IMG/VR virus record: IMGVR_UViG_2703718769_000016
Span: 1-19,413 of that record
DNA: 19,413 nt
Direction: 5' to 3' (one strand)
Source: a virus
Lineage: Duplodnaviria > Heunggongvirae > Uroviricota > Caudoviricetes
Shown here: one piece after another, positions 1 to 17,856 of the stretch
Position numbering within the stretch: position 1 is the first letter of the stretch
Layout of the letters: each line of letters opens with the position of its first letter
Notes under the pieces: model-generated
The model's input: the letters and a program-made list of their open reading frames with translations, nothing else
Database searches by the model: none
What the model was told of the DNA's origin: nothing
Position numbers and translations under genes: made by a program

Positions 1-1287
1 TCATCGTCTCGCTCTGTGGGGCATGTATGGGACACTTTCAGTTAACTCCTTATTGAGCAGTTCTATCTGCCCGATATTGTTATCTTTCATCCATGCTCCG
101 TAAACATTGAAAACCATTTGGGCGTTTGCATGTCCCATCTGGTTTGCGATAAAGCTTGGATTAGCTCCCGCCGATAATGCCCAGCAGGCATAAGTATGCC
201 TGGACTGATAGGCTTTCCTGTGCCGTAGTCCCGCCCGTCTCAATGCCGATGCCCATGAGTCTCTGATGGAGTCTGCTTTGTAGTGGTGGCCTGCCTGCTG
301 GCATTTTTTCACCAGTTGCGGATTAAAAACAAATGTGCATTCATGTCTTACGGTGCGTCCGAACTCCCGAAGTTTGACGTCAATTTGATATTGAGTACCA
401 AATCTTGTCATTTCAGCCTGACTTTTCAGGGTATCAACGGCTGGTTGAACAAGATGAATAACACGATCTGTTCCCGCTTCGGTTTTTGGTAGAGTGAACT
501 CACCGAGTTTTGTATAATTACGACGGATAGTCATTGTTTTAGCTTTTAAATCAATATCCTCCCAGGCAAGAGATATCAGCTCACCATGACGAATGCCTGT
601 GTATACTGCTAAAGACCACAGGTTTTTTGTTTGTTGATGGTGGCAAGCATCAATAAAACGAATGAATTCGTCATGTGTGAGCGGATCTGGTTCTGTTCTT
701 GATCTTTTTAATGGTGTCAGACCGTTAAACGGGTTTGATTCTGTGTATCCGTTGTCAGCTGCAAATTGAAACATACCTGCAATTGTCGTCATGTAGTAAT
801 TAACTGTAACTACAGATCGCCCTTTGACAGGAGTTGTCTTGCCGTTCGAGAGATTGTGATACCCGGTCAATAAATCTTTCCTGATAAAGAGTAAATCTTC
901 TTTTGTTACAGATGAAGCCAGTCGATTTTCCCCTATACGAGGGAGCATGTTTCTCACCACAGATTGATACCGATTGAGCGCGTTACCACCTATCTCGATT
1001 TTCTTCAGATCCAGCCATTTTTCGGCAAGTGCCTTAATGGTTATCTCCCTTTTCCCCAGACCGAAGTGTTTCAGATTTGGAGACTCAGGGAACTGCGCAG
1101 CGTAGTCGAAATTCCCCATTCTGATTGCAAAACAAACTGAAGTCCTGAGTTCGCCTGCAATCTTCCGGTTTTTGGCTGTGTCAGGAATACCGAGGTTTTC
1201 TCTGACACGTTTGCCGTTATAGTGAAACCATATGCGGAGTGAGCCGCCATGGTTTTCAACGCCTGTTGGGTATGATGTGTTACTCAT
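1..1287 (-). CDS. int: Phage tyrosine integrase (lambda Int family site-specific recombinase)
   Basis: 428-aa ORF; C-terminal catalytic-type residues (R...HxxR...Y pattern, e.g. RHTYACW, GHANAQMVFNVYGAW); N-terminal arm-binding-like domain; SD GGGAGG upstream of ATG at 1287; sits at the prophage edge next to an excisionase-like gene. Confidence 0.9.
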   Translation of the reverse strand: MSNTSYPTGVENHGGSLRIWFHYNGKRVRENLGIPDTAKNRKIAGELRTSVCFAIRMGNFDYAAQFPESPNLKHFGLGKREITIKALAEKWLDLKKIEIGGNALNRYQSVVRNMLPRIGENRLASSVTKEDLLFIRKDLLTGYHNLSNGKTTPVKGRSVVTVNYYMTTIAGMFQFAADNGYTESNPFNGLTPLKRSRTEPDPLTHDEFIRFIDACHHQQTKNLWSLAVYTGIRHGELISLAWEDIDLKAKTMTIRRNYTKLGEFTLPKTEAGTDRVIHLVQPAVDTLKSQAEMTRFGTQYQIDVKLREFGRTVRHECTFVFNPQLVKKCQQAGHHYKADSIRDSWASALRRAGLRHRKAYQSRHTYACWALSAGANPSFIANQMGHANAQMVFNVYGAWMKDNNIGQIELLNKELTESVPYMPHRARR

Positions 1288-1320
1288 TAAACCTCCCAGA
1301 CGTCCAGGAGCATTAACAGG

Positions 1321-1575
1321 TTAACCGGAACTTGCATTTTTGGCACCTGGTTGTTTCTGGTTTTTTATCCACCGCATAATTGCATCTATGTTGTACAGGC
1401 ATTCACTGTTTGGTTTTGGCTCTCCATCCACAGAGAAGTGGATATATTCCCTTCCTAACATCCATGATGTTCTACGTGCTCGCTCGATAGTGCCTGATTT
1501 TAATCCTGTTGCAGCAATTAAGATGCTTTCAGCGCACCATTCACTGGGTGTTATCTGATAGATAATTTGTTGCAT
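1321..1575 (-). CDS. Putative excisionase / DNA-binding protein (Xis-like)
   Basis: 84-aa ORF immediately upstream of int on the same strand; small basic protein with wHTH-like segment (ITPSEW...SGTIERARR); ORF track starts at a TTG (1590), ATG at 1575 more likely. Functional call is mostly positional. Confidence 0.55.
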   Translation of the reverse strand: MQQIIYQITPSEWCAESILIAATGLKSGTIERARRTSWMLGREYIHFSVDGEPKPNSECLYNIDAIMRWIKNQKQPGAKNASSG

Positions 1576-1632
1576 AGAATTGCCTTGCAACCGCCGCCAC
1601 TATAGCTGGTGGACGGCGATCAGGGTTGAACA

Positions 1633-4116
1633 TTAAAAATCAGCTTGACTCGGGATCAGTTTTTGCCAGATTGCTGACACGTATTTTGCCTGGTAACGCG
1701 CATCGTGCAGGGCGTTATGGCGTTCACCTTCGAATGGAATAGTCGTTCTGGCATCGAAATCTATCACCAGTCCCAGAGCAACCATCGTTCGTACATCACG
1801 ATCGTTGTTGTAGCGCCACGGACAGGGGATCCCCTGTCGTTCATATGAACGGCGTAAAATTGCGTTGTCGAAGTTGGCTCCATTTCCCCACACCTGAACA
1901 AAAAATTCACCGGAGTTTTCGGCGATAAACTCCCTGAACTGCAACAGCGCGTCATCCAACGGGATTTCATTGGTAAGAATGGCGGATTGTGCTTCGCGTG
2001 ACTGTTTCAGCCACCACTTAATGGTGTCCCGATCGATGACTCCGCCTGCGGTTTCCAGATCGATAGTTTTGCTGAATTCTGGTCCCATCTCTCCGGTTAC
2101 CGGATCAAAAAACTTACCGGCTATAGCGTTGACTGGCGCATCAGGATTTTTTCCCATTGTTTCAAGGTCAATCATCAGATGGTGCCACAACCTGCTGGTG
2201 GATGTGACTTCATTATGACCGTTCACCTTAATTAAGGGATTTGCTGTCTCGCCAGTTTCATTATCGCTATCGTGATGCTGATCACCGTCAGCATTCTCCT
2301 TGCACGGATGTTCAGGGCTTTCCTGTTTCTCCGGATTTTTTTCCTGATATTCATCCAGGTTTTCTTCATTAAAGGTGTCCTGATACGTTGCGTCGCCCAT
2401 CACCGCGCCACAGTCAGGGCAGTTACCCCCACCAGTCTGGCCGCAGGAATCGCAGGCTTTTTCGGTTTCCGGTTGTGCTTCTGGCTCGTTTTGTAACGCA
2501 TTTGGGCTGTTTTGTTCCGCTTTCTGGCCGTTCTGTTCCGTTTCTTGCTGGTTCTGGTTCACAGAATCGCGGGTTTCAATCCCCTTAACCCATTTCGGAT
2601 CATTTTGGTCGCTAATCCATTCAACAAACTCTCCGCGAGAGGCAGCCAGTACTTTGTCTGCATCGACAGGATTTTTGGGCAGAATGTTTTTCCGTGCCTC
2701 GTGGAGTTCGGCCCGTAACTTCTCGTACTTCGTATCTATCTGTGACTGAGCATCCAGCGGCTGCGTGTCCTGATGATGTTCAGTTGTGTCCGGTTCCACT
2801 GTTTCAGCCGTTGCCTGCTCATCTGCCATTGCGTCAGATGGTTGAGGTTTTTCTTCATCATCCTTTTTTCCTTCTTCTGTTACACGCTGTGGCATCGGGG
2901 CAGAGGAGCGACCGCAGGCAATGGCCACAATCATCGGGTCGGGGGTAGCGTGGTCTGTTTCAGTCAGTACCCTGTTCAGATATTCAGTGACGTGCGCGGG
3001 GATGACCTCGATACCAATTGGTGCTTCTTTCACGGACGCAACCACGATGGCGCGGGAATAATCCAGCCCACCAGGCATGGCGATGAATTTGTCGCGGAAA
3101 ACAGAAAATGGCGGTTTATTTTCAGCGATAATTTCCTCAATGCGTTTCGCGTGTGCCGGATGAAGGTTATAAATGTCCACGTCCATTGAACGAGCCAGTA
3201 CACCTGTGGCCACATCGCGCTCCAGTGACGTCAGATCGTGGACGAAACCTTCGCCGCGATCGGTAAGAATTCCACCGCCAGCATTAGCACCTGATGGGGT
3301 GCGATTGATTTCAGATACATAATTTCCCTTCGCCCACTCTTTTGTCAGTAATCCCTGATCCAGATAATCAGTTTTCATCCAGATGGATATGAACTTGTCG
3401 AATTCTGCCGGGCTGATACGACGGGTTGCTGCGTGAGTGAATGCTCTGGATACCGACTCCGCCAGTCTGCTCAGATGGTGGTTTGTCAGCTTATCCAGTT
3501 CAGGATGAGAGCGTACAGCTGTGAGGAGGCTCTGGAGGTTACTGTCCTCCATATCCATTTCCATGCGGATCACTGTATTGCGTTGTTCCGGTGTTGCGTG
3601 GTGCCTGTATTTTCCGCCTTCTTCCTTGCCGAAAAAGTAGAGATGCAGGAAACGATGAGTCAGACTGAGAGTGGCGACGGGAATTTCACATTCATGGCAG
3701 TCATCGTTACTGTCCTGGGATTTATTTTTCTCTGCGTTCTCTGGCTGAGCACCGCTTTGTTCATCGTTGTCATTGCTGGCTGTTACAGCAGCTTCGCCGT
3801 TGATGTTGTCATTGAAGGGTATAGCCATCATGGTGATACCATCTTCCCCGCCTTTTTCATAGCGGTTGCAGAATTCAGTATCAAACACGCCTTCCGGTGG
3901 AAGGTCATTCACGACGGGGAAATTTACGCGAACGGGTTTTTTGAAATCATCCTCGTCGTAGCCTGCATCGTCCATGGCTGCAATGCAGCGGGAAACTGCG
4001 ACAGAAAGTTTTCTGGCATCAGCCCAGAAAAAACCGCCTTTGATGCCAAGGCGTTTTCTGACTTTATCGTTTTTTGCTTCGCAGTGTAGTGCAAAAGTCT
4101 GTTTATCAGCGCTCAT
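1633..4116 (-). CDS. Prophage exonuclease, 827 aa, with C-terminal DnaQ-like DEDDh 3'-5' exonuclease domain, internal zinc ribbon and acidic low-complexity linkers
   Basis: C-terminus has motifs DLETMG (Exo I), [11 protein letters not shown] (Exo II), [10 protein letters not shown] (Exo III, DEDDh); [16 protein letters not shown] zinc-ribbon-like motif; long D/E/Q/N-rich segments; occupies the recombination-module position between xis and kil. Confidence 0.75.
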
Positions 4117-4223
4117 TGTATTTAAACCTCTGGCTGGATTAGAATTAGCGGCCCTTTGTCTGATTTCTCCGAATACGGTGACGCAGGGAGAAATCCGGTA
4201 GCCTGCGCTGCCGGATTTTTATT

Positions 4224-4610
4224 TCAGTGGAAGGTTGCCTGGTTTGCTGTTTTGTGAGTTGTTTTTCCCTTTTCGTGCTGGCATTCAGGGCAGTCGCACT
4301 CAGAATTTTCTCTTGCAAACTCAAGAGCCTGCGCCAGTGTATGGATTTGTTGTGCTCCAATGTTGCTTCTGACGACTTCACATGCAGCATGAATATATGG
4401 GCTTGGTGCTTTGCCATTTAACCCACATGAAACCAAACGACTGTCTTTATATTCGTTATTTCCAACTTCTGTAAGCACTGAAAAAGAAAATACAAAGTCG
4501 ATTTTGTATTCTTTGCATATTTTACTGATGCGTTCTGCAATTTCTTTGAGTTCATTTATTGCATCAGGACTGGTTTCGGAAAATATTTCATTTTGCTCAA
4601 GTTCTTTCAT
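4224..4610 (-). CDS. Hypothetical protein (AT-rich accessory gene in the early-left operon)
   Basis: 128-aa ORF, markedly AT-rich (K/E/I/N-rich), C-terminal CDCPEC motif; same strand and spacing as the neighbouring early genes. Confidence 0.5.
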   Translation of the reverse strand: MKELEQNEIFSETSPDAINELKEIAERISKICKEYKIDFVFSFSVLTEVGNNEYKDSRLVSCGLNGKAPSPYIHAACEVVRSNIGAQQIHTLAQALEFARENSECDCPECQHEKGKTTHKTANQATFH

Positions 4611-4684
4611 TTTTCAATTTCCGTTATTGATAACTAATGTAAATTACTGTTTGGTGCATATATTCGAGAGTATTTTATTACTCA

Positions 4685-4906
4685 TTACCATGATTCAGCT
4701 TTTACCGGCAAACCATCACGTCCCAGGAAAACTTTAATCATGCAGTCGGTAATGCATGTTTTTGTCGTGAAGTTACGAATATAGAGTTTTCTCTTTTCAA
4801 TATTGTTTGCTGAAGCGATATATGTCCGACCTTCATGAAGAACATAATCGCCAGGCGTCACGCACTGACGTGGTATTTCATCAGTTCCGAAGTGATGAGC
4901 AATCAT
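4685..4906 (-). CDS. kilR: KilR-like host-killing / cell-division inhibitor protein (73 aa)
   Basis: 73-aa product [35 protein letters not shown]... recognised from memory as Rac prophage KilR-like; SD GGAGAT 6 nt upstream of ATG at 4906; ORF track's longer start (4924) overlaps the SD. Confidence 0.55.
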
Positions 4907-5486
4907 AATTATCTCCATTTTCACAAATGAACTTTGTTGATGCAGTGCCTGGTGCCTCTAGGTGACGTTAACCAGTTAACAATTAACGCCGGAATACATA
5001 AGAGGATACTTACGCCAGTAAAAGACCGCTTTACTGATTTAACTGTTCCGCGTGCGCTTAGCCGCATTCACCGCATCACAAAATTCACTTTAAAAAGGGC
5101 GGCAGAGCAGTCACGGAGTAAAACTGATACCGCCAAACGTCACCAGAAAATTGATAACAGAGGGCGTTGCAGCGGGGTTGTCACTTAAGCGTATGGTCAA
5201 CCTTACAACCCGGTGTCCTCAACGGGGAAGAAATAACCCCGCCATACTTACCGCCGCGCCATTTCGCGGATTGCCACAACCGGAAGCACACGGTCGAAGA
5301 AATCTAACGACAAGCCTTCTAAGGAAAAGACGCCTTCGCCGTGTGCTTTCGTGTTGTGCCCTGACTTTTCAGGGAAATATCCTTTCAGTAAACTGTCAGT
5401 GCCGGATGCTCACCCGTGTCCGGTGCACGTTCTCCCCCTCACCAGTGGATAACTCCAAAACTACTGACAACCCCAGGAGGGTGAAT

Positions 5487-5741
5487 ATGGCAAATATTTA
5501 TAGTCCTGACGAATATTTCAAAATAACTAATCAAAACATCAAAAATATTGTTGCCACTCAACAACTCTTTGGTAAATTACTTGGAGTAATTGCTGCCCGC
5601 ACAGGTTTGACTAATGAACTAAAGGAGATAATTGAATCCAGTGCTGCGACAGAAGAATCGATGTCTGAGCATGTTGAGTATTCAAAGCAGTTTATTCTCA
5701 ACTCAATGTCTTTGGTTCGCATAATTAAAGACCATTCTTAA
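5487..5741 (+). CDS. Hypothetical 84-aa protein, opposite strand to the early-left operon (sieB-position moron)
   Basis: Strong SD (CCAGGAGGG) 5-7 nt upstream of ATG at 5487; AT-rich coding sequence; predicted helical soluble protein; the long upstream extension to 5151 looks non-coding (R/K-rich, no SD). Confidence 0.5.
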   Translation: MANIYSPDEYFKITNQNIKNIVATQQLFGKLLGVIAARTGLTNELKEIIESSAATEESMSEHVEYSKQFILNSMSLVRIIKDHS

Positions 5742-5940
5742 CGCTTAAGAACACTTCGTTTATGAAGCATCCACTCGCATCTGGTGATGTTGTATTTATC
5801 GTAGTTAAATCGCTTTTCTTAATAGCGCGTTTAGCAATCCAGATGCGGGCCTCAGTACCTGCATTTGGTTCCACCTGCTGGAGGCGCTTTGCATCTTCCA
5901 GAAGCAGGGCGATAACGTGTTTTAATTCTGCCTCGTTCAT
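5725..5940 (-). CDS. Hypothetical small protein (71 aa), early-left operon
   Basis: ATG at 5940 lies 1 nt after the stop of the upstream 51-aa ORF (GGTGAATAAAATG), i.e. translationally coupled; ORF track begins it at an upstream GTG (5949). Confidence 0.4.
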   Translation of the reverse strand: MNEAELKHVIALLLEDAKRLQQVEPNAGTEARIWIAKRAIKKSDLTTINTTSPDASGCFINEVFLSVKNGL

Positions 5941-5941
5941 T

Positions 5942-6097
5942 TTATTCACCTGAGTTTCTTTCCAGCCAGCGACGCGCGCCAGCTTCGGTTTTAAACGTTT
6001 TGCTTCTGGTATACGTCATCGCGGTGAACGTACCGTCCTGGTTTGGGAACACGCCGAAAACCAGAGATTCATTGTTGCCAAGATTGAGCATATCCAT
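5942..6097 (-). CDS. Small 51-aa protein, YdaF-like (first gene of the leftward operon)
   Basis: Not in the ORF track (under 60 aa). MDMLNLGNNESLVFGVFPNQDGTFTAMTYTRSKTFKTEAGARRWLERNSGE; SD GAGG 6 nt upstream of ATG at 6097; length and position match Rac ydaF from memory. Confidence 0.4.
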   Translation of the reverse strand: MDMLNLGNNESLVFGVFPNQDGTFTAMTYTRSKTFKTEAGARRWLERNSGE

Positions 6098-6264
6098 GTT
6101 GACCTCATTTACCCTTAACGCCGGGTAGCGGAACTAAAAACCTGCTGCGCTGTTATACAAAGTGTTCCCGCCGTCATGTTCATACGCCTCGGGCTGGCTA
6201 CTTAACCCCTGACCACTGCCGGGTAACTCGAAGTATTGCCCTGCATTCTGTGAAGCGGGGTGGG

Positions 6265-6320
6265 TTGTAATGAATATAAGAATATTTAGTTTTGCCGTCA
6301 AGTTGAATATAAATATTTTT
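6265..6320. promoter_or_regulatory. OL-like operator/promoter region (repeated TGAATATAA sites)
   Basis: TGAATATAAG at 6271-6280 and TTGAATATAAAT at 6303-6314; the same 12-mer recurs at 7031-7042 on the other side of the repressor gene. Confidence 0.35.
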
Positions 6321-6346
6321 AAGATAAAAGGCCGGCAAAGCCGACC
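6318..6346 (-). terminator. Rho-independent terminator downstream of the repressor gene
   Basis: Minus-strand hairpin GGTCGGC-TTT-GCCGGCC (one G-U pair) followed by TTTTATCTT. Confidence 0.5.
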
Positions 6347-6370
6347 TCTGATTACAGGGAAAAGCGGGAG

Positions 6371-7015
6371 CTAGAGGCTGAACTGAACACCTTTTGCTAC
6401 AGCAACGATGTTACATTCCGGTGTAAGTAAGGATGATTGATAGCGTGGGTTAAGGGGGGCTAAGTACACGAGCTTTCCATCAATAACTAATTTTTTTATA
6501 GTCATGGATGGTTCGTTTGTGAGTGGATCTGGGACTATTACTGCGACGATGCTACCATTTTTATATTTTTCGCCAGGCCTCATGATCACTGTGGCTCCAA
6601 CTGGAATGCTTGGGGATCCTGATGGATTGTGCATAGTATCATCAGGCATTGAAACGGCAAAATCTCCCTCCTTGACATCAAAGAATGTGGTGATCCTGTC
6701 GACATTTCCCATAGTTTTCTCTCCTTTTAATATTAGGAAAGAAATCGCTTCTCCCCAAGAAAGGTATGGGATTTGGGTACCTGGATTTTTCTGCACAAGG
6801 GATGATTCAGGTGATGATACTCCATACAGGAGATAGGACTCAGTAGTGCCTAGTGCTAGGGCTAATTTACTAAGAGCTTTGCTACCTGGTTCGTTTAGAT
6901 CTTTCTCCCAGTATCCTATTGTTACCCCAGTTACGCCAGAAAGCTTGCCAAGTTCAACTTGGGTCAGACCTTTGTCTTTTCTGAGTTTCTTAAGCCTAAT
7001 GCCAAGGCTTTCCAT
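6371..7015 (-). CDS. CI-like prophage repressor (N-terminal HTH_XRE, C-terminal S24 LexA-like peptidase domain)
   Basis: N-terminal LTQVELGKLSGVTGVTIGYWEKD helix-turn-helix; C-terminal domain with S24-type fold features; SD GGGAGA upstream of ATG at 7015; divergent from a Cro-like gene. Confidence 0.85.
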   Translation of the reverse strand: MESLGIRLKKLRKDKGLTQVELGKLSGVTGVTIGYWEKDLNEPGSKALSKLALALGTTESYLLYGVSSPESSLVQKNPGTQIPYLSWGEAISFLILKGEKTMGNVDRITTFFDVKEGDFAVSMPDDTMHNPSGSPSIPVGATVIMRPGEKYKNGSIVAVIVPDPLTNEPSMTIKKLVIDGKLVYLAPLNPRYQSSLLTPECNIVAVAKGVQFSL

Positions 7016-7024
7016 TATTTTCTC

Positions 7025-7114
7025 CCGCGAATTGAATATAAATTATTTTAGATTGTATTGACCTAAAAAAAATTACCCTTTAATCTAAAAATACTTAGTT
7101 TTTAAGGGGGCGAA
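7025..7114. promoter_or_regulatory. OR-like operator region with divergent promoters (pR-like for the cro-like gene, pRM-like for the repressor)
   Basis: TTGAATATAAAT at 7031-7042 (identical to the 6303-6314 site); TTGACC at 7057-7062 then 17 nt then TAATCT; SD AAGGGGG before ATG 7115. Confidence 0.4.
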
Positions 7115-7342
7115 ATGCGAGTTGATGAACTTGTCCAGTTTTTTGGTTCTGTCCAAAGAGTCGCTGATTTTTATGGGGTAACCCGAGAAGCTATATACAT
7201 GTGGCGTAAGCGTCCCGGCGAAATAGTTCCCAAGGGGAGGGCTGCTGAAGCAGTTGCATACTCCAAGGGAAAATTATCGTTGAACCCAGAACTTTACAAA
7301 AAGAAGGATAACACCTCGAACGAAAGGAAAAATGATTCATGA
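7115..7342 (+). CDS. Cro-like HTH regulator (YdaS family)
   Basis: 75-aa protein with HTH (FGSVQRVADFYGVTREAIYMWRKR); divergently transcribed from the CI-like repressor; stop overlaps the next gene's ATG (ATGA). Confidence 0.7.
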   Translation: MRVDELVQFFGSVQRVADFYGVTREAIYMWRKRPGEIVPKGRAAEAVAYSKGKLSLNPELYKKKDNTSNERKNDS

Positions 7343-7776
7343 AAATCAAACATGAGCACATCCGCATGGCGATGAATGCGTGGCTGCTTTATCCGAGGGT
7401 AGGGCGCAAAAAAATCGCTGATGATATAGCGACAGCATATTTTGAGCTTGAAATGACTTATCCACCAATGCATGACACCTCTACGACAGAGGGTATTGGA
7501 TTGAACATACAAAATATTTTTCGCTGGCTTGAAAAGGATACGCCTGATGCTGTTGAAAAAATTCAGGCACTAATTCCGGCTATCCTGACTGTTCTTCCGC
7601 GTGAACTGCGTTATCACCTCAGTATTTTTGACACTGTTGAGCGCCGTGCATTACTGGCGGCGCAGGAAGCGTTAAGTACGGCAATTGATGCACATGATGA
7701 TGCAGTCCAGGCCGTTTACCGGAAAGCGTATTTCAGCGACGGCGGGTCATCCGGCGAGTCTGTTGTGGTGCATTGA
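7339..7776 (+). CDS. YdaT-like (CII-analogue) early regulatory protein
   Basis: 145-aa ORF translationally coupled to the cro-like gene; family assignment by position and recalled similarity only. Confidence 0.5.
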   Translation: MKIKHEHIRMAMNAWLLYPRVGRKKIADDIATAYFELEMTYPPMHDTSTTEGIGLNIQNIFRWLEKDTPDAVEKIQALIPAILTVLPRELRYHLSIFDTVERRALLAAQEALSTAIDAHDDAVQAVYRKAYFSDGGSSGESVVVH

Positions 7777-7862
7777 TATTTATGCCAGACCCCTGCTGAT
7801 TCTGTTGATTGGGGAATCACAGATTATCACCAGAGGATGGTTCGTCACAAGGTGAGGCAATT

Positions 7863-8873
7863 ATGGCCGCATTACCATACATGCAACTTTACATAGCTGA
7901 TTACCTGGCGGACACCATGCATTTGTCCGCAGAGGAGCACGGTGCGTATTTGTTGCTGATGTTCAATTACTGGCAAACAGGGAAGCCAATACCCAAAAAC
8001 AGACTGGCAAAAATCGCCCGTCTGACTAACGAGCGATGGGCTGATGTTGAACCATCCTTGCGGGAGTTTTTTTGCGATAACGGCGACGAATGGGTGCATC
8101 TTCGGGTTGAGGAAGATCTGGTATCAGTCAGGGAAAAATTAACCAAAAAATCAGCCGCCGGAAAAGCATCTGTTCAAGCCAGAAGAAGCAGAAAGGAAGC
8201 ATATGTTCAAACAAAACAAGAGAGAGATTTAACAGGTGTTCAAACAAATGTTGGTGTTGTGTTTGAACATGACGCAAACACAAAAGCAACTAATAAAGAT
8301 ACAGATCTAAAAGAATTAAACCCCACACATAACGCGCGCATGCGCGAGAGTGCTCCAACCGGTGAGTCGAATGGTGCGTCGTTGCAGACAGCCGAACCTG
8401 AATACCTGGACGGCCTGAGCGAACCGATCGGGAAATTTTCGATGACCACTGTCTGGCAGCCGTCGCCGGATTTTCGACAACGGGCAGCAGTGTGGGGTAT
8501 GGCTCTGCCTGAGCCGGAATTTACACCTGCTGAGCTTGCTGCATTCCGGGATTACTGGATGGCGGAGGGGAAGGTTTTCACGCAGGTTCAGTGGGAGCAG
8601 AAATTTGCCCGCCACGTGCAGCACGTCAGGGCACAGGTAAAACCAGTCAGCAAGGGGGTAAGCCATGCAGCATCAGGTGGCACGGCATCACGGGCAGTTC
8701 AGAAAATCCGGGCAGCACGAGAACAGTGGGAACGTGAAAACGGATTTATCAGCAACGGAAACGGCCTGGAAGCTGTGGGAACTTATGGGGGAGGTTTATT
8801 CAAACCGCTGGACTCAGAAGAACGGGGCCGCACCTTCGAAGCTCTGGATTGCCCAGATTGGCGCGATGACTGA
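7863..8873 (+). CDS. Replication initiation protein, DUF1376 (YdaU-like) N-domain with DnaT-like C-terminal region
   Basis: SD AAGGTGAGG then ATG at 7863; N-terminus MAALPYMQLYIADYLADTMHLSAEEHGAYLLLMFNYW typical of DUF1376; central low-complexity linker whose DNA carries iteron-like repeats. Confidence 0.7.
   Translation: MAALPYMQLYIADYLADTMHLSAEEHGAYLLLMFNYWQTGKPIPKNRLAKIARLTNERWADVEPSLREFFCDNGDEWVHLRVEEDLVSVREKLTKKSAAGKASVQARRSRKEAYVQTKQERDLTGVQTNVGVVFEHDANTKATNKDTDLKELNPTHNARMRESAPTGESNGASLQTAEPEYLDGLSEPIGKFSMTTVWQPSPDFRQRAAVWGMALPEPEFTPAELAAFRDYWMAEGKVFTQVQWEQKFARHVQHVRAQVKPVSKGVSHAASGGTASRAVQKIRAAREQWERENGFISNGNGLEAVGTYGGGLFKPLDSEERGRTFEALDCPDWRDD
8170..8275. repeat. Iteron-like repeats (TGTTCAAAC core), candidate replication origin inside the initiator gene
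   Basis: tgttcaagc at 8172, tgttcaaacaaa at 8204 and 8238 (direct, 32-34 bp spacing), inverted copy tgtttgaaca at 8262; flanked by an A-rich stretch. Confidence 0.35.
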
Positions 8874-9327
8874 ACAGCAAATCCGGCTGGTCTGCCGTCA
8901 GTGCATGGACCGCTGCCGGGCGGGTGAAACGTGGCCCCCGGACCTGGCTGAGTTTGTTGCGCTGATTTCGGAGAGTGGGGCAAATCCATTTGGTCTTACG
9001 GTGGATGCCGTGATGGAGGAGTACCGTCGCTGGCGCAATGAATCCTGGCGGTACGACGGGAGTGATAAATACCCGTGGCCACAGCCTGTGCTGTACCACA
9101 TTTGCCTCGAGATGCGTTCAAAGGGGATTGAGCGCCAGATGACCGAAGGGGAGTTAAAACGGCTTGTGGAAAGGCAGCTGACGAAATGGGCAAAGCATGT
9201 TGGTAATGGCCTCAGTGTTCCGCCAGTCCGGCGACAACTGGCAGCACCCAAACGCCCGCCAGGGCCAACGCCAATTGAATTGCTGAAACAGGAATATGAG
9301 CGCCGGAAGGCGGCCGGTTTTGTCTGA
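8665..9327 (+). CDS. Lambda P-like replication protein (helicase loader family); start uncertain
   Basis: C-terminal two-thirds aligns by eye to lambda P ([14 protein letters not shown] / PFLPSPGQFVAWC; YPWPQP / YPWKSN). Strong SD AAGGGGG before ATG 8665 but that start overlaps the upstream gene by 208 nt; alternatives are ATG 8785 and ATG 8866 (ATGACTGA overlap with the upstream stop). Confidence 0.6.
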
Positions 9328-9361
9328 GTTGAGAAGTAATTTTTACCGGGAGGAAAATTTA

Positions 9362-10075
9362 ATGGAAACCGTATTTGACGCACTGAAAGCACTGAAAAAA
9401 GCCTCGTCGCACGAGATTGCAGCCCGTCTTGAAATCAGCCGTGACGATGCTGTCAACGAGCTGTGGAAGCTGAAACGCCGTGGTGAAGCTGATAACAAGG
9501 GGTCGATGTGGTGGCTGACGAGTGAGGCAACTGAAATGGCCACAAAAACCACTGCGGAGATGCTGATTAACGCAATTGAACAGCATGGTCCTCAGTCGGC
9601 TGACGAACTGGCGTTAATGTTCGGGATTACCTCCCGCCGGGCGAATTCAACGCTGGCAATGGCAATAAGCAAAGGTCGTCTGATTCGAGTAAATCAGAAC
9701 GGTAAATTTCGTTACTGCCTGCCGGGCGATAATTTACCAGCAGAGCCGAAAGCTGCATCGGTAACGGAAACTGCTGGTAAAGCCTTTCCTCAGCCAGCAG
9801 GTGTTGCGTTACCAGTCCGGGAAGCGGAAACACAGGAAGAAATTAAAACTGAAAGTGTGGCGGTCACAGTGCAGTCACAGCCGTCGTTCACCAGAAAGCA
9901 TCCGGATAGTCTGATTTTACCATCGCTGCATGTGGCTAACCGCGAACTGCGCCGGGCAAAAGGTCAGGTTCAGAAGTGGGAGCGAGTCTGTGCTGCGCTG
10001 CGTGAGCTGAACAAGCACCAGGATATTGTTCGACAGATTACTGATTCATCCTGTTGTGTTGCATCAGACAAGTGA
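9362..10075 (+). CDS. Hypothetical protein with two winged-helix-like segments
   Basis: SD GGGAGGAAAA before ATG 9362; 237 aa; wHTH-like stretches ([23 protein letters not shown] and [29 protein letters not shown]). Confidence 0.6.
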
Positions 10076-10090
10076 TTGCAGGGGACGCTG

Positions 10091-10594
10091 ATGGCAAGAG
10101 TATTTACACCAGAAGAGCGGGAAAAAATTAAGGGGCAGGTTGTTGAACTCGTACGCCAGAGCGGTCGCGAGACGTTACGGCAACTGGAAGCTAAAACAGG
10201 TGCAACAAGATATCTGGTGATCGTTCTCGCCAGAGAGCTGGTTGCCAGTGGTGATGTATACAACTCTGGCTACGGGTTATTTCCGTCTGAACAGGCTCGT
10301 AAAGACTGGCAAAACGCCCGCAAAAAACTTTCAAGGGAAAAGGCGAAGAAACCGGCTGTGGTTGATCCGGACCTTATCTGGTCATTACCAGACGGAGAAA
10401 TACGCCGCTACGACAGGCGCCTGAACATAATCTGTCGCGAGTGCCGGAATAGTGAAGTTATGCAGCTAGTGCTGGCGTTTTATCAGGGGGTGGGGTCAGG
10501 AGGTGGTGCTGTGAGTGAAATTAGCTATCAGGCTTCAATTTCCGCTGGCATTCGCATCAAAGGAGAGGAGCATGGAAATAAAACCAGAAGATGA
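10091..10594 (+). CDS. Hypothetical prophage protein
   Basis: 167-aa ORF; ATG 10091 follows GGGGA; ORF track start at 10076 is a TTG; same strand and tight spacing with neighbours. Confidence 0.5.
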   Translation: MARVFTPEEREKIKGQVVELVRQSGRETLRQLEAKTGATRYLVIVLARELVASGDVYNSGYGLFPSEQARKDWQNARKKLSREKAKKPAVVDPDLIWSLPDGEIRRYDRRLNIICRECRNSEVMQLVLAFYQGVGSGGGAVSEISYQASISAGIRIKGEEHGNKTRR

Positions 10595-10928
10595 GTTAAG
10601 TAATATTGTTTTATTTCCGGTAAAAGAGGATGACCCACGTAATCAGGTTAATTTTCTTTATGAGCCATCGGAAAGACCATATTGTCATCACGCCTCTGTC
10701 CGGGTTGACGAAAAAGAGCGTCAGGTCCGCTGTAAAATCTGCGGTGCAGTTGTGGAGCCATTTGACTGGATGCCCTCTGTGGCGAAAAGAGAAACCAGAC
10801 TGGCAGATGATGTAAGGCTCTTGCGCCAGGAGGAACGGGAAAGGCGGAGAAATGTAGAAAAGCTAATTCAGATTGAGCGTAACGCGAAAGCGCGGATACG
10901 CAGGGCGGCAAAATCAAGAACTGAATAA
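10572..10928 (+). CDS. Hypothetical protein with zinc-finger-like motif (C/H-x...CxxC)
   Basis: SD AAAGGAGAGGAG before ATG 10572; PYCHHASVRVDEKERQVRCKICGAV motif; basic coiled-coil-like C-terminus. Confidence 0.5.
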   Translation: MEIKPEDELSNIVLFPVKEDDPRNQVNFLYEPSERPYCHHASVRVDEKERQVRCKICGAVVEPFDWMPSVAKRETRLADDVRLLRQEERERRRNVEKLIQIERNAKARIRRAAKSRTE

Positions 10929-11021
10929 TTAAATTTAGCACTGTTAAAAATTTAATCCTTAACCGGAGGGATTTCTGCACCCTCAGAACATCAGGAGGCC
11001 GTTCGAAATGGCGGTAGTGAA

Positions 11022-11204
11022 ATGCGAAAATTCAAAATAATTATTGAAACGGGAATAGCTGGTGGAGATTTTGAGGATGTATTCGAAGTAGATGATGACG
11101 CAACACCTGATGAAATTCATGACGAAGCAAAAGAAATTTTCTTTAACTACTGCAATTACTCATACCACGAAATAAAAGATGAAGAGGAAGGACAAAATGG
11201 CTGA
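11022..11204 (+). CDS. Small acidic hypothetical protein (60 aa)
   Basis: ORF with acidic composition; stop overlaps the next ATG (ATGGCTGA). Confidence 0.4.
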   Translation: MRKFKIIIETGIAGGDFEDVFEVDDDATPDEIHDEAKEIFFNYCNYSYHEIKDEEEGQNG

Positions 11205-11373
11205 TTTTGGTTCAACTAAATATAACGCCAGTTTTGAAGAATGGCATGAACTGTTAATGGATTATGCAGAGTTACGCGGTGGAAGTGCCGCTGATGCTGA
11301 AGCATGGCGTGATGATTATGAAGCAGGGAAAACTCCGGTCGAAGCATATTGTGATGAGTGGGGCGATGAATGA
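11197..11373 (+). CDS. Small acidic hypothetical protein (58 aa)
   Basis: SD GAGGAAGGA before ATG 11197; coupled to neighbours at both ends. Confidence 0.45.
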   Translation: MADFGSTKYNASFEEWHELLMDYAELRGGSAADAEAWRDDYEAGKTPVEAYCDEWGDE

Positions 11374-11729
11374 GCGAGATTAATTATCAGGAAGGGCATG
11401 AAAAGGCAGGGCAGGCAAAACCAGTGGCATGGCGATATCGCTACGTGAAAAAAGGCGTTACAGACTTTCAGGGGAAGCAGTGGGCTGGTGACTGGAAATA
11501 TGTCCAGACAAAAGAAGATTGTAACGACAGACCGAACTATGAAATTCAGGCGTTATTCACGGCACCGCCAGCCCCGGTGACATCAGAAGGACTAGTTAAA
11601 GCCGTGTGCTTTTATGAACAGGTAAAGCGTGAGAATCCACCAGTCGAAACAGGTGCATGGAAAGATGCTGTTGACTGGGTACTCAAAGAGGCTTGCCAGG
11701 CTGTAAGCATTAGCAACAAAGGGGGGTGA
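11370..11729 (+). CDS. Hypothetical prophage protein (119 aa)
   Basis: ATG overlaps the upstream stop (ATGA); plausible globular composition. Confidence 0.55.
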   Translation: MSEINYQEGHEKAGQAKPVAWRYRYVKKGVTDFQGKQWAGDWKYVQTKEDCNDRPNYEIQALFTAPPAPVTSEGLVKAVCFYEQVKRENPPVETGAWKDAVDWVLKEACQAVSISNKGG

Positions 11730-11732
11730 GTA

Positions 11733-11909
11733 ATGCGTGTGGCATGTATCAGTTTGTTACCGTACCCGACTCGTTTTTTGGCTTCTGCGCTAATTGCAAA
11801 GCCGCGTGTCCTGATGGATGACAGCATCATCCCGACACCAAAGCGCCGCCATACCGGTATTGCAGCGGCACGACGAGCAGCAAAGAAACGCAGGAGAGCA
11901 AAACGATGA
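11733..11909 (+). CDS. Small basic protein (58 aa), not in the ORF track
   Basis: Strong SD AGGGGGGTGAG before ATG 11733; C-terminal KRRHTGIAAARRAAKKRRRAKR; stop overlaps the next ATG. Confidence 0.3.
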   Translation: MRVACISLLPYPTRFLASALIAKPRVLMDDSIIPTPKRRHTGIAAARRAAKKRRRAKR

Positions 11910-12100
11910 AAAACCGTAAAGCAAAAATTCTGTTAGCTCGCAGAAACGGTGTTGGTGTCTGGCGGTGGGTGAGGATTAGTAACAGACGGGTGAGGTTGAC
12001 GGGGTGTTGCGGTGTTATGGGGCACAGTTGTTGCAAAAAGCCCAGCGCGGCGCAAAACCGCTGGAAAAACCACTGTTATCTGCGCACTAAAGGAGAGTGA
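11906..12100 (+). CDS. Questionable small ORF (64 aa) over a G/T-rich repeat region
   Basis: SD AGGAGAG before ATG 11906 and exact stop-start abutment with neighbours, but W/R/C-rich translation and GGGTGAGG repeats suggest it may be non-coding. Confidence 0.2.
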   Translation: MKNRKAKILLARRNGVGVWRWVRISNRRVRLTGCCGVMGHSCCKKPSAAQNRWKNHCYLRTKGE

Positions 12101-12101
12101 G

Positions 12102-12617
12102 ATGGCGTTAACACACCGCGAACTCTGTCAGATTGCGTACAAGTTCCTTAAGCGCAACGGGTTCAAGGTTTGCTTTCATGACCGCTTTATAGCTGTAACC
12201 AGTACCGGAGAACAGCCAGATGCTATGGGATTCAGAAATTCAGCATCATGCCTGATAGAGGCGAAGTGTTCTCGTGCTGACTTGTTGGCAGATAGAAAAA
12301 AGCGTTTCCGTAAAAATCCCTCTCTTGGCATGGGCGACTGGAGATTCTTTATTAGTGAGCCGGGAATTATTTCAATTGAGGATTTACCACCTGGCTGGGG
12401 ATTACTTCACGTTGTTAACGGAAGAGTACGGAAAGTACATGGGTGGCCCAAGGGTAATTGCTGTTGGGGTAATCCTGACGATAAGCCATTTACTGGAAAT
12501 AAGCAGGTTGAATGCGATTACATGTTGTCTGCATTAAGGCGCATGGAGTTGAGAGGGCACCTTAATGAAATATATGACGGTGTAATTGTTAATAAGAAAG
12601 AAGGAAACGCGGCATGA
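12102..12617 (+). CDS. Putative PD-(D/E)XK-fold nuclease-like protein (MmcB-like)
   Basis: SD AAAGGAGAG before ATG 12102; motif pattern D...(IEAK) consistent with a PD-(D/E)XK core (PDAMGF...[12 protein letters not shown]); 171 aa. Confidence 0.45.
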
Positions 12618-12958
12618 CGACTTTTACCAGAGAGCAGTTAATAGCTCACGCAGAGGAGACTATTGAAGCACAGAGACTGTGCATACCGGGCACAATCGAC
12701 AATGACATCATCCGCACATATAAGATGGATATTGCTGTTCTGGAAATCGCACTGGCATCGCTGGCAGCAGAGCCAGCCGGTAAATTGCATGAATACAAAC
12801 CAGTGGGACATCAGCGTCTGGTCGACGAGTTAACCATGCTGGTAAAGCAGTTAACCTGGCAACTGAGGAAAACGAAGCCGGACTGTAAATTGCCGGGTAA
12901 GGCGATGGACTACCTGAAGCGAAACGGACTGATAAGTGCAGAGGATGTTTTACGATGA
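12614..12958 (+). CDS. Hypothetical prophage protein (114 aa)
   Basis: ATG overlaps the upstream stop (ATGA); helical composition. Confidence 0.55.
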
Positions 12959-13038
12959 CCTGGCATGGGGCATTCACAACGGTAGGGATTGCAATGGCGG
13001 TGGTGCTGATTGTGTATTCGATTTGTCGCTGGGGGTAA
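12955..13038 (+). CDS. Putative 27-aa hydrophobic peptide ([27 protein letters not shown])
   Basis: ATG overlaps the stop of the preceding gene (ATGA); single predicted transmembrane helix; too short for the ORF track. Confidence 0.3.
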
Positions 13039-13149
13039 AAACGATTTGCGGGGAAAGGATAGTTAAGTAGAATTGCTGCGGGTGCTTGAGGCTATCTGTC
13101 TCAGGCATGAACACCAAAAGGCAGATAGAGAAAAGCCCCAGTTAACATT

Positions 13150-13215
13150 ACGCGTCCGGCAAGACGCTTAACATTAATCTGAGGCCATATCTATGCTCTA
13201 CACACGTAGGTTAGC
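13150..13215 (-). ncRNA. Predicted Sok-like antisense RNA of the hok locus (approximate position)
   Basis: Inferred from hok-family organisation; candidate minus-strand promoter (TTGCCT then 17 nt then TAACCT) would place a transcript antisense to the upstream in-frame ATG and SD at 13181-13195. Confidence 0.25.
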
Positions 13216-13249
13216 CTCTTACGTGCCGAAAGGCAAGGAGAAGCAGGCT

Positions 13250-13405
13250 ATGAAGCAGCAAAAGGCGATGCTAATCGCCCTGATCGTCATCTGTTTAACC
13301 GTCATTGTGACGGCACTGGTAACGAGGAAAGACCTCTGCGAGGTACGAATCCGAACCGGCCAGACGGAGGTCGCTGTCTTCACAGTCTACGAACCTGAGG
13401 AGTAA
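13250..13405 (+). CDS. hok: Hok/Gef-family type I toxin (51 aa membrane peptide)
   Basis: MKQQKAMLIALIVICLTVIVTALVTRKDLCEVRIRTGQTEVAVFTVYEPEE: hydrophobic TM helix plus conserved RKxLCE...EVA motif of the Hok family; SD AAGGAG; an in-frame upstream ATG at 13193 with its own SD (mok-like leader); structured 3' region with fold-back hairpin and terminator. Confidence 0.8.
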   Translation: MKQQKAMLIALIVICLTVIVTALVTRKDLCEVRIRTGQTEVAVFTVYEPEE

Positions 13406-13475
13406 GAGACCAGGCGGGGGAGAAATCTCCCGCCACCTCTGATGTGTCAGGCATCCTCAACGCACCCGCACTTAA

Positions 13476-13495
13476 CCCGCTTCGGCGGGTTTTTG
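13476..13495 (+). terminator. Rho-independent terminator of the hok transcript
   Basis: CCCGC-TTCG-GCGGG followed by TTTTT; preceded by hairpin GGCGGGGGAGA-AAT-CTCCCGCC at about 13414-13434. Confidence 0.6.
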
Positions 13496-13506
13496 CATTA
13501 GTCTGG

Positions 13507-13545
13507 TTGACAAAAACAGGAAAATGCGAAAATATAAGGTTTACG
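13507..13545 (+). promoter_or_regulatory. Candidate sigma70 promoter for the two-gene insert
   Basis: Perfect -35 TTGACA at 13507-13512; A/T-rich -10 candidates (AAATAT / TATAAG) 17-20 nt downstream; lies between the hok terminator and the 13571 ATG. Confidence 0.35.
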
Positions 13546-13570
13546 AATTCTAAAAAAAGCGAAACTTGAA

Positions 13571-14221
13571 ATGAATGAAAATCAGTTAGCTCCTTGTTGG
13601 GAATTTCAACCTTATCTTGCTGAAAGCAATGTTCGCCAGTTGTTGGCGGAGATCGCTAACGTACTTGAGCAGTTGTACTATCATAAGCACGTATTAGACA
13701 GCAACTGGTCTGAAGGTGTAAGGGCTTATGATTGGGTCAGAAACCATCTTATTCAAAATGAAGGCGCAATTCCTGGTCTTAAGATGATTTCCAAGGGGTT
13801 GGACTATGTAGTTGCTTTAAATAAAGTTCCGCTACAATTTACCAAAGATTGCATTAATAACCCCAAAAAGAAACATCGCCTGCGTCGAAATAAAGTAGAG
13901 CATGAGCAGCTTTCATTGTTTGGTGATGTTGAGGCTGAGCAAGATATTACATGGCGAGTCATAGCGGAGCCATTTTTATCCGAAGAGGGAGATGGTGAAT
14001 TAGAGTCCACACTGCCTCGTTGGGAGGTGGCTCTTGTTGGGTTTAATATCTATGGTGCTCAGATTAGTATGGTTTCTCATCAATCTACAGCATCAATGCC
14101 ACTTATGCCCCTTGACGGTAACACACTCCCTGGCGAAGCGGAGATTAATAAGGTGTCTCTTCGTCGGCGTACGAAGGATAAAATTTTGGATGTGAGCAGT
14201 AATGGAACATCAGGTGAATAA
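13571..14221 (+). CDS. Hypothetical 216-aa protein, candidate toxin/effector partner of the HTH-M78 peptidase
   Basis: Long ORF in a low-GC insert; no motif recognised by eye; 3' end overlaps the start of the downstream HTH/peptidase gene by 20 nt (operon). Confidence 0.6.
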   Translation: MNENQLAPCWEFQPYLAESNVRQLLAEIANVLEQLYYHKHVLDSNWSEGVRAYDWVRNHLIQNEGAIPGLKMISKGLDYVVALNKVPLQFTKDCINNPKKKHRLRRNKVEHEQLSLFGDVEAEQDITWRVIAEPFLSEEGDGELESTLPRWEVALVGFNIYGAQISMVSHQSTASMPLMPLDGNTLPGEAEINKVSLRRRTKDKILDVSSNGTSGE

Positions 14222-15305
14222 CTTCACTGAGTATCGAGGCGATAAGCTCAAACTAGCAAGAATGGCTATTGGGCTTTCATGTGAAGAGTTGGCCGAAAAA
14301 ATTGGCAAAACAAAACAATTCGTTAGCAAATTGGAGAAGGGATTTAGGCCATCAGAGCAATGCCTGGAGTTAATAGCCTCAGCTCTTATGATTAAGCCCG
14401 ATTTTCTATTTACTGAGCGAAAATATGCTCTGGAAAGCGATGTTTGCCATTTTCGGAGTAAGAAGTCCAGGACTCAAACGCTGACTAATAGTGTCTTGGC
14501 TAGGGCTGAGATTCTTAATATTATAATTTCTGCTGTTGAAGGTGAAATCGAATTCCCTGATGTCAACATACCAGAGCACCCAGGAACTGAATTACTTACC
14601 CCGAATGATATTGAGCGAGTGGCAGAAGATTGTCGCCGTGCATGGAATCTAGGTCTTGGCCCTATATCATCAATGGTGAAATTGGCGGAGAGTTTGGGGG
14701 TAATCGTTGCGCATGTTACGGGAGTCGATGATCGTGTTGATGCATTCACTGTTCACAATAACAGGCCTGTTATTATCAGGAACAATGTAAAAAAAAGCAT
14801 ATGTAGATTTCGCTCTGATTTAGGTCATGAGTTAGGGCATTTAGTAATGCATGAGGGCATAACTACTGGTGATAAACTTACGGAATCACAAGCTGATCAC
14901 TTTTCTAGCGCCTTATTGGTTCCTAGGCTATCTTTCATTAAAGAATTTCCACGAATACGAGGTAAGCAATTCGATTGGAGTGCTCTGGTTGAATTTAAGC
15001 TTAGATGGAAAATTAGCCTTAAAATGTGTATTTATCGAGCCAGTGCATTAGGACTATTGACCCAGGAACAGGCAAGAACTGGCTATATGCATCTTAATTC
15101 TAGAGGGTACACGAGAGTTGAACCAGGTGATGAACTTTTGCGCCACGAAGAACCAAGTATGCTGTCCGAAGCGATTGACATGCTGGATGATGCAACTTGG
15201 TTAAGAATTCTTATGAAAACTGGCTTGAGTCAAGATTTAATTCGTGAGTTGTTCTCCATCAATCGACCTATTACAAATCCAAGAAATATTTTTCAGATTG
15301 TTTGA
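14202..15305 (+). CDS. Xre-family HTH fused to ImmA/IrrE-type (M78, COG2856) zinc metallopeptidase
   Basis: N-terminal HTH (LKLARMAIGLSCEELAEKIGKTKQFVSKLEKG); HEXXH zinc-binding motif HELGHLVMHE about 140 residues later; 367 aa, typical for HTH-COG2856 fusions. Confidence 0.85.
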   Translation: MEHQVNNFTEYRGDKLKLARMAIGLSCEELAEKIGKTKQFVSKLEKGFRPSEQCLELIASALMIKPDFLFTERKYALESDVCHFRSKKSRTQTLTNSVLARAEILNIIISAVEGEIEFPDVNIPEHPGTELLTPNDIERVAEDCRRAWNLGLGPISSMVKLAESLGVIVAHVTGVDDRVDAFTVHNNRPVIIRNNVKKSICRFRSDLGHELGHLVMHEGITTGDKLTESQADHFSSALLVPRLSFIKEFPRIRGKQFDWSALVEFKLRWKISLKMCIYRASALGLLTQEQARTGYMHLNSRGYTRVEPGDELLRHEEPSMLSEAIDMLDDATWLRILMKTGLSQDLIRELFSINRPITNPRNIFQIV

Positions 15306-15310
15306 GCATA

Positions 15311-15335
15311 CCCGCTACGGCGGGTTTTGTTTTTT
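15311..15335 (+). terminator. Rho-independent terminator after the HTH-M78 gene
   Basis: CCCGC-TAC-GGCGGG followed by TTTTGTTTTTT, 6 nt after the stop; near-identical core to the hok terminator. Confidence 0.65.
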
Positions 15336-15407
15336 CCGGGCTTTTTGGTTTACAATCCGCACGCCAGCCTGAACAACTGGCACCTGCTGCGCCAGCAGAG
15401 AAAAACG

Positions 15408-15686
15408 ATGGCGCACAATACCAAATCACACAATTCTGATAATTCAGCTGTCTTTGCCAGCAGGCACGGGCGGCGTTCCCGCACATTCAAATCTGACTGG
15501 TTCCAGCATGACCCATGCACAGAAGAACAGGCCGAATGGTTAATTCAGTGCTACCGCAGGCGCGGATACGAGTTTCAGAAAGACCTCAGCCTCGACCGAC
15601 TGCACTGGATAATCTCTGTGAGGCTCCCTTACTCCGAGCGCCCACCGCGTCCATCCCGCACATTCCAGCAACGTATCTGGAGGTAA
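15408..15686 (+). CDS. Hypothetical protein (Rem-like position upstream of the YdfU-like gene)
   Basis: 92-aa ORF from the first ATG with any SD-like context (15408); stop TAA overlaps the SD/GTG start of the next gene; start uncertain. Confidence 0.4.
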   Translation: MAHNTKSHNSDNSAVFASRHGRRSRTFKSDWFQHDPCTEEQAEWLIQCYRRRGYEFQKDLSLDRLHWIISVRLPYSERPPRPSRTFQQRIWR

Positions 15687-15687
15687 C

Positions 15688-16737: not shown

Positions 16738-16749
16738 AAGGGGGTATTG

Positions 16750-17112
16750 ATGTGTATAGAGTTTGTTTTGCCTTACCCGCCGACGGTGAATACTTACTGG
16801 CGACGTCGTGGCAGCACATATTTTGTATCAAAAGCCGGGGAGCGTTATCGCCGGGCAGTGGCGTTTATTGTTCGCCAGCAGCAGTTGAAATTAAGCCTGT
16901 CCGGACGGCTGGCAATAAAAATTATTGCAGAGCCACCGGATAAGCGCCGCCGTGACCTGGACAATATTCTGAAAGCACCGCTGGATGCGCTGACGCACGC
17001 GGGGTTGTTAATGGACGATGAACAGTTTGATGAAATCAATATTGTACGTGGTCAGCCAGTATCTGGTGGACGGCTGGAAATAAGAATTACAGAGGTGGGT
17101 GTGCATGAATAA
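16750..17112 (+). CDS. rusA: RusA Holliday-junction resolvase (crossover junction endodeoxyribonuclease)
   Basis: 120 aa; motifs PPTVNTYWRRRG, DKRRRDLDNILKAPLDALTHAGLLMDD and GGRLEIRITE match the RusA family; SD AAGGGGGT. Confidence 0.85.
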   Translation: MCIEFVLPYPPTVNTYWRRRGSTYFVSKAGERYRRAVAFIVRQQQLKLSLSGRLAIKIIAEPPDKRRRDLDNILKAPLDALTHAGLLMDDEQFDEINIVRGQPVSGGRLEIRITEVGVHE

Positions 17113-17816: not shown

Positions 17817-17856
17817 CTGATATTTTGCCGATTTTGTACGCGATGGCAAAGTAAGA

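Follow-up and report, generated by a model that had tools for sequence, protein, structure and literature searches.

Accessory genes of lambda-like prophages are exchanged in a small number of variable slots, and here we report that ORF128, a gene of 128 codons, is a rare alternative to racC in the slot downstream of kilR (or of kilR-ydaE) and upstream of a RecE-family exonuclease gene. The account that best unites the observations, and which we hold with moderate confidence, is that ORF128 is a genuine orphan accessory gene, a substitute for racC with a stably low GC content, which is expressed with its operon and encodes an acidic, non-enzymatic binding protein. The gene was studied in a stretch of 19,413 nucleotides (the window), positions 1 to 19,413 of IMG/VR virus record IMGVR_UViG_2703718769_000016, in which the following features are of relevance.

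1633-4116, minus strand: exonuclease gene, downstream neighbour of ORF128 (PF06630, E 1e-12; PF16473, E 4e-61; phrog_607)
4137-4670, no strand assigned: approximate extent of cassette-specific DNA, ORF128 with both spacers (megablast homology breaks)
4190-4219, tail to 4226, no strand assigned: GC-rich hairpin directly 3' of the ORF128 stop codon, with an A-run and a T-run as flanks (folding)
4224-4610, minus strand: ORF128 coding sequence (phrog_2016; identical to RefSeq WP_062873437.1, 'hypothetical protein')
4281-4298, minus strand: codons of the cysteine knuckle C105-D-C107-P-E-C110 (residue conservation in 15 sequences)
4611-4684, minus strand: AT-rich spacer between kilR and ORF128, 74 nt, 25.7% GC (composition and sequence)
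4685-4906/4924, minus strand: kilR, FtsZ-directed division inhibitor, upstream neighbour in the same operon (phrog_294, E 2e-38; RefSeq kilR)
5097-5148, minus strand: DicF sRNA homologue (Rfam RF00039, 76.7 bits against a gathering threshold of 48, E 1e-16)

Coding status of ORF128

An initial annotation, made from the sequence alone, had described a 128-aa gene between an exonuclease gene and kilR, and this description was borne out: the listing of open reading frames places 128 codons, from ATG to TGA, at exactly 4224-4610 on the minus strand, and the neighbours are the PF06630/PF16473 exonuclease and the phrog_294 kilR. ORF128 is a real protein-coding gene, catalogued but uncharacterised, since a full-length match to phrog_2016, an annotated RefSeq CDS, the ratios of substitution rates, a conserved open frame and an RBS-like GGAA all concur. 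The match to phrog_2016, a PHROGs family with no function assigned, aligns residues 1-128 to profile positions 1-128 of 128 (E 1.1e-75, 253 bits). The RefSeq CDS is 100% identical and its product is 'hypothetical protein', which is also what every source label reads for the 249 contigs carrying the exact protein. In pairwise Nei-Gojobori comparisons of six diverged alleles, dN/dS was below 1 throughout, ranging from 0.17 to 0.83 with most values at 0.2-0.45 (dS reaching about 1), and by this measure the gene is under purifying selection. All 22 full-length variants retain the open frame, the other five frames being variable; a frame of 128-130 codons is preserved down to 58% amino-acid identity. 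The RBS-like GGAA (4619-4622) lies 8 nt 5' of the ATG, and GGAA or AGGA is kept in all variants 8-10 nt 5' of the start codon; in variants that contain ydaE the remainder of the spacer is replaced.

Distribution and position

ORF128 was found in 81 of 5426 complete E. coli genomes and was always chromosomal, as compared to racC in 1772 of these genomes, 1388 of them with at least 99% identity. It was further present in six phage records (Shigella Stx phages 75/02 and POCJ13, phiSTEC1589-Stx1c, PhiR5_2) and in 38 IMG/VR viral contigs; a search of plasmids yielded none, nor did any of 185,579 GTDB species-representative genomes contain it. A database of 5.8 billion sequence clusters gave 26 related clusters, all from E. 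coli, the family spanning 58-100% amino-acid identity, and a profile search of 1.84 billion cluster representatives retrieved only ORF128's own family. On the sequence collections covered, the family (phrog_2016) appears as an orphan confined to lambda-like phages of E. coli and Shigella, Stx-converting phages included. Most carriers are prophages located at ynfG. E. coli FHI_NMBU_11 has an essentially identical prophage integrated beside yecE, in which ORF128 is annotated as WP_062873437.1. The two prophages, otherwise nearly identical, diverge over the right half of the window, where that of FHI_NMBU_11 has a ParDE toxin-antitoxin pair. In the window, that half holds an HTH and IrrE/M78-peptidase protein (14202-15305, plus strand; PF01381, PF06114) that precedes DUF968 and the Q antiterminator (17099-17794, plus strand; PF06323, E 4e-83).

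The window was compared to 43 related loci. The order kilR-(ydaE)-ORF128-exonuclease was observed in 43 of the 44, and likewise in the RefSeq genomes inspected, and an exonuclease N-terminus of one type lies directly downstream of ORF128 in all 44, the window included. The 44th locus, L045, has a truncated copy of ORF128 and no kilR, and is a deletion or rearrangement variant in which the exonuclease junction has been retained; on this contig (IMG/VR 2563366883_000019) only residues 49-128 are encoded, at 5001-5240, with unrelated DNA upstream.

In the K-12 Rac prophage, the interval between recE and kilR is annotated with racC and ydaE, and racC and ydaE also occupy the ORF128 slot in sibling prophages, while a sibling with the same hybrid exonuclease as the window has dicB and a gene for a DUF1482 protein there. 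The earlier suggestion that ORF128 takes the racC/ydaE position of Rac was thus right as to the interval but too wide as to what is replaced: ydaE and ORF128 occur together (kil-ydaE-ORF-exonuclease) in 8 of the 44 loci, and ORF128 is therefore an alternative to racC specifically and not to ydaE.

RacC is the closest counterpart, by positional equivalence only: it is encoded in the same slot as the last small gene before a recE-type exonuclease, downstream of kilR/ydaE and on the same strand. The two genes are similar in size and composition (91 aa and 39.1% GC for racC, 128 aa and 39.5% GC for ORF128), both have a GC-rich hairpin at once 3' of the coding sequence, and both proteins are orphans without a Pfam family. 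However, no sequence relationship is detectable between them (hhalign probability 0.08%, E 0.65, for the ORF128 profile against RacC), RacC does not have the cysteine motif of ORF128, and racC is common and nearly invariant whereas ORF128 is rare and diverse (58-100% identity). YdaE and YnfU, small zinc-binding proteins of Rac and Qin, are encoded in the same operon segment and are, like ORF128, small and cysteine-containing, but YdaE matches the Rtr1/RPAP2 zinc-finger model (PF04181) and ORF128 does not, and hhalign of ORF128 against YdaE gave a probability of 0.16%.

A mosaic and exchangeable cassette

Genomes with the same exonuclease match the window by megablast only up to position 4136 (query 437), and genomes with ydaE-kilR only from position 4671 (query 972) rightwards. 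Homology is accordingly broken about 20 nt before the start codon of the exonuclease gene and about 14 nt past the stop codon of kilR. Within these limits ORF128 is itself a mosaic, in which N-terminal, central and C-terminal tail variants are found in different combinations. In binned comparisons, for example, locus L005 shows 100% identity with the window over 3850-4150 and 4450-4500 but only 62-76% over 4300-4450. These alignments place recombination junctions at and inside ORF128, and the gene is an exchangeable cassette.

ORF128 is also the most diverged of the three neighbouring proteins, with a mean pairwise identity of 86% (minimum 60%) as compared to 95.5% for KilR and 92.5% for the exonuclease N-terminus. 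Co-variation of ORF128 with either neighbour was considered and rejected: the correlations were at the level expected of linkage and there were clear discordant pairs, such as identical KilR proteins with ORF128 at 60-64% identity and exonuclease N-termini of 98-99% identity with ORF128 at 72-79%, so that a specific partner is not supported.

Relation to the recombination genes

The exonuclease of the window is a hybrid, in which a RecE N-terminal region (aa 54-195) is joined to an Rv2179c-like 3'-5' exoribonuclease domain (aa 645-817), and recT, bet and gam are absent from the window. Most carriers of ORF128 encode instead a RecE-family protein (about 685 aa), with gam, bet and lambda exo downstream. 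The strict adjacency of ORF128 to the exonuclease gene keeps a recombination-related role in consideration, either as a partner or regulator that binds the N-terminus of the RecE-family exonuclease or as a Gam-like inhibitor of host nucleases. Such a role would explain why ORF128 stays beside the RecE-family N-terminus in 44 of 44 loci, even where ydaE separates it from kilR or kilR is missing. The gene order in lambda is kil-gam-bet-exo, and with respect to the recombination genes ORF128 is placed as gam is; it is moreover acidic, like known DNA-mimic inhibitors. However, most carriers already encode Gam just downstream (kil-ORF-recE'-gam-bet-exo), and none of the 15 ORF128 family members searched matched the Pfam Gam families. 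The same type of exonuclease is also found with DUF1482 and dicB, and the variants of ORF128 do not track those of the exonuclease, as the discordant N-termini and locus L005 exemplify. We consider a recombination accessory doubtful on this balance.

Operon context and the hairpin

The DicF homologue precedes kilR by about 190 nt and is on the same strand, and the operon thereby combines two FtsZ-directed division inhibitors, an sRNA and KilR. The sRNA kilS is annotated at the equivalent position in K-12 Rac. An open reading frame of 48 codons (4921-5067, minus strand) overlaps the 5' end of kilR and has a weak match to phrog_24763 (E 7e-8), but is without RefSeq annotation in the matching prophage, and Rfam gave a sub-threshold STnc100 match at 4892-5095 (24 bits against 47).

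Co-transcription of ORF128 with this operon is assumed from gene order and strand. Expression on induction, together with the early-left operon, would follow from the strand shared with the neighbours, from the absence of a promoter-like site upstream and from the dispensability of the upstream spacer. A consensus scan, which may miss weak promoters, found no sigma-70-like site upstream of the ORF128 start; the one promoter-like match near the gene (4617-4590) overlaps the start codon, and the region as a whole had 4 promoter-like sites where shuffled sequence gives an expected 3.7. The terminator-shaped hairpin 3' of ORF128, on the other hand, counts against co-transcription.

This hairpin has a strong intrinsic terminator shape only on the plus strand, antisense to all neighbouring genes. 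On the plus strand it folds at -24.2 kcal/mol (z -4.4), with a 13-bp stem followed by UUUUUAUUU, and on the minus (coding) strand at -17.2 kcal/mol (z -2.5), with a U tail that is weak and not conserved. The stem with its A/T run is intact in 22 of 23 variants, the exception being the L004 type, which has a deletion; in one variant a change closes the single mismatch of the stem. An analogous hairpin with a plus-strand T-run follows racC in K-12. A -10-like hexamer, TAGAAT, at 4140-4145 on the plus strand could give a plus-strand RNA of about 75 nt, although its -35 region is poor.

The AT-rich 74-nt spacer upstream of ORF128 and the conserved hairpin directly 3' of its stop codon could be taken as the promoter and terminator of an autonomous moron, expressed from the repressed prophage to the benefit of the lysogen, for example in defence or exclusion, and a composition unlike that of the exonuclease gene and a patchy distribution would agree with this. 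We regard it as improbable. No sigma-70-like site was found upstream, the promoter-like sites are as many as in shuffled sequence (4 versus 3.7), and the spacer is fully replaced in the ydaE variants with ORF128 retained. The hairpin lacks a strong or conserved U tail on the coding strand, PADLOC returned no match, and ORF128 replaces racC rather than being inserted between genes that are otherwise adjacent. With no promoter of its own seen in the consensus scan, ORF128 would fall outside the strict definition of a moron.

Base composition and origin

The GC content is 39.5% in ORF128, 47.7% in the window and 49.8% in the exonuclease gene; the GC of ORF128 at the three codon positions is 0.50, 0.37 and 0.32 (GC3 31.8%), and the gene lies at the 5th percentile among windows of 387 nt. 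A sharp drop in GC over about 4200-4700 had been described at the outset. The drop is real, but it was overstated and misplaced: the lowest 387-nt window of the 19.4 kb is at 4416-4802 (32.3%, about 3 SD below the mean) and spans the 5' approximately 60% of ORF128, the 74-nt spacer and the 3' end of kilR, while the 3' third of ORF128 has 47% GC, equal to the window average. In the window kilR (40.0%) and xis (41.5%) are as AT-rich as ORF128, and in K-12 Rac the GC content is 39.1% for racC, 36.8% for ydaE, 41.9% for kilR and 37.2% for sieB. All 22 full-length variants sampled have 37-41.5% GC and the same AT-rich 5' part. The drop in GC is hence a regional and family trait and not the footprint of an insertion of ORF128.

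These comparisons bear on the proposal that the compositional discontinuity marks a horizontally acquired accessory gene. That ORF128 is accessory and exchangeable is upheld by its occurrence in 81 genomes versus 1772 for racC and by the breaks in homology. Composition as evidence of a foreign source did not hold, since the GC content is the same as that of kilR, racC, ydaE and sieB and all 22 variants fall within 37-41.5%; with the neighbours and the slot alternatives (kilR, racC, ydaE) equally AT-rich, composition does not indicate foreign origin. A recent arrival of the cassette from an AT-rich source that does not belong to the enterobacterial phage pool, with the GC trough as the mark of insertion, is disfavoured and in our estimate very unlikely. 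It would accommodate the 5th GC percentile of ORF128, the GC minimum at 4416-4802 and the loss of homology, on either side of ORF128, with most of the related prophages. Yet the trough does not coincide with the cassette, in that it extends into the 3' end of kilR and leaves out the 3' third of ORF128, and a homologue outside E. coli and Shigella was absent from all collections searched. The family is confined to the E. coli/Shigella lambda-like phage gene pool yet deeply diverged within it (58-100% amino-acid identity, dS up to about 1), which points to a long residence there, as judged from these sequences. As a point of method, low GC is here a regional trait and no evidence of foreign origin.

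The idea that the AT-rich stretch is non-coding, either regulatory or RNA-coding, with an accidental open frame could draw on the absence of a known domain, the low-confidence structure prediction and the strong antisense-direction terminator shape that adjoins, but is effectively refuted by the data on selection and conservation, in that dN/dS is below 1 in every comparison, the frame of 128-130 codons is kept at 58% amino-acid identity with a gradient of GC over the codon positions (0.50/0.37/0.32), and Rfam contained no RNA family matching within 4224-4684.

Homology, predicted structure and possible mode of action

The homology and structure-prediction searches that had been proposed returned no match to a known structural or regulatory protein. 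Pfam gave nothing above threshold for 15 members of the ORF128 family, PADLOC no family at E up to 1, and a profile search of the PDB only a repeat-protein artefact (6g6o) and coiled-coil designs, none of them credible. Two AlphaFold runs, started from different family members, reached a low pLDDT of 57 and 60, and both models have helices at about 15-34, 43-54, 57-65, 71-81, 86-101 and 108-121 or beyond, their input alignments being shallow (about 1.5 effective sequences) and overlapping almost entirely; Foldseek with both models found nothing at E below 2 in the PDB or BFVD. Nothing was found in the literature on ORF128 or on the function of RacC.

Several sub-threshold candidates were discarded. 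DUF1281_C, a ferredoxin-like domain known from Api92-like proteins, was the best Pfam match, with residues 26-64 at E 0.0025 (18.1 bits against a gathering threshold of 22.8) and with 8 of the 15 members at E up to 0.5, but several unrelated families reach comparable scores, the PDB yielded no such structure at E up to 10, and the models show helices where this domain needs strands. The YnfU family of NCBIfam (NF038384) scored 13.4 bits with the C-terminus of ORF128, against a cutoff of 36 (E 0.044). DUF6340, DUF711 and OB_NTP_bind were further noise below threshold in the Pfam, NCBIfam and PADLOC scans.

A C-terminal CDCPEC motif and a composition rich in a few residues had been pointed out from the translation, and both are found in the protein. 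The motif occupies residues 105-110, and the most frequent amino acids are E (16), A (11), K (10), S (10), I (9) and N (8). Among 15 family members C107 and C110 are invariant, C105 is present in 13 and C32 in 14, and a further cysteine is found at position 62 or 66 depending on the type of central block, which is a single linked block change and not a series of independent events. H74, K120, T121, N123 and the C-terminal H128 are invariant, and invariant residues cluster in D38-R58 and in S70-A76 (SPYIHAA). The members are without exception hydrophilic and acidic (pI 4.5-5.95, net charge -3 to -13), and none has a hydrophobic segment. Such features would fit a small non-enzymatic protein with a cysteine cluster, of metal-binding or disulfide type, and a conserved C-terminal tail.

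For a family with no homologue of known function, the mode of action that we infer is as follows. The early-left operon, consisting of the DicF-like sRNA, kilR, ORF128, the exonuclease gene, xis and int, all on the minus strand, would be transcribed once the repressor is lifted. ORF128 would then be made as a small, acidic (pI 4.5-6), soluble and probably helical protein that acts without catalysis. The cysteine cluster (C32, C62/66, C105, C107, C110 and possibly H74, as candidate ligands) may hold the protein together through a metal or through disulfides, and during induction ORF128 may act on a host or phage protein by binding and modulating it, with contacts likely made through the variable blocks and through the conserved tail at the C-terminus (K120, T121, N123, H128). 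A tentative and rather unlikely extension of this proposal is that phrog_2016 constitutes a new family, restricted to E. coli and Shigella, of host-takeover or counter-defence proteins, in which a cysteine-knuckle acidic helical inhibitor would carry mosaic, fast-diverging surface blocks that track a variable target in the host or in rival phages, and for which RacC would be a functional analogue.

Significance for Rac-like prophages

ORF128 is a phage ORFan in an already known variable slot and as such a fairly ordinary finding. Like the accessory genes of the lambda early-left region (gam, kil, ral and the ea genes) and abc of P22, it is small, non-essential and patchily distributed amid genes for recombination and division inhibition, and, like them, it moves as a cassette through recombination at gene boundaries, but it has no homology to any of these genes. 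Carriers of ORF128 include the inducible Stx-converting phages 75/02 Stx, POCJ13 and phiSTEC1589-Stx1c as well as a prophage from the O104:H4 outbreak lineage, and the operon of ORF128 also encodes two cell-division inhibitors and a recombination nuclease. To know what ORF128 does would close one of the last gaps in the Rac-like early-left operon, and might also explain racC, which has stood unexplained for decades.
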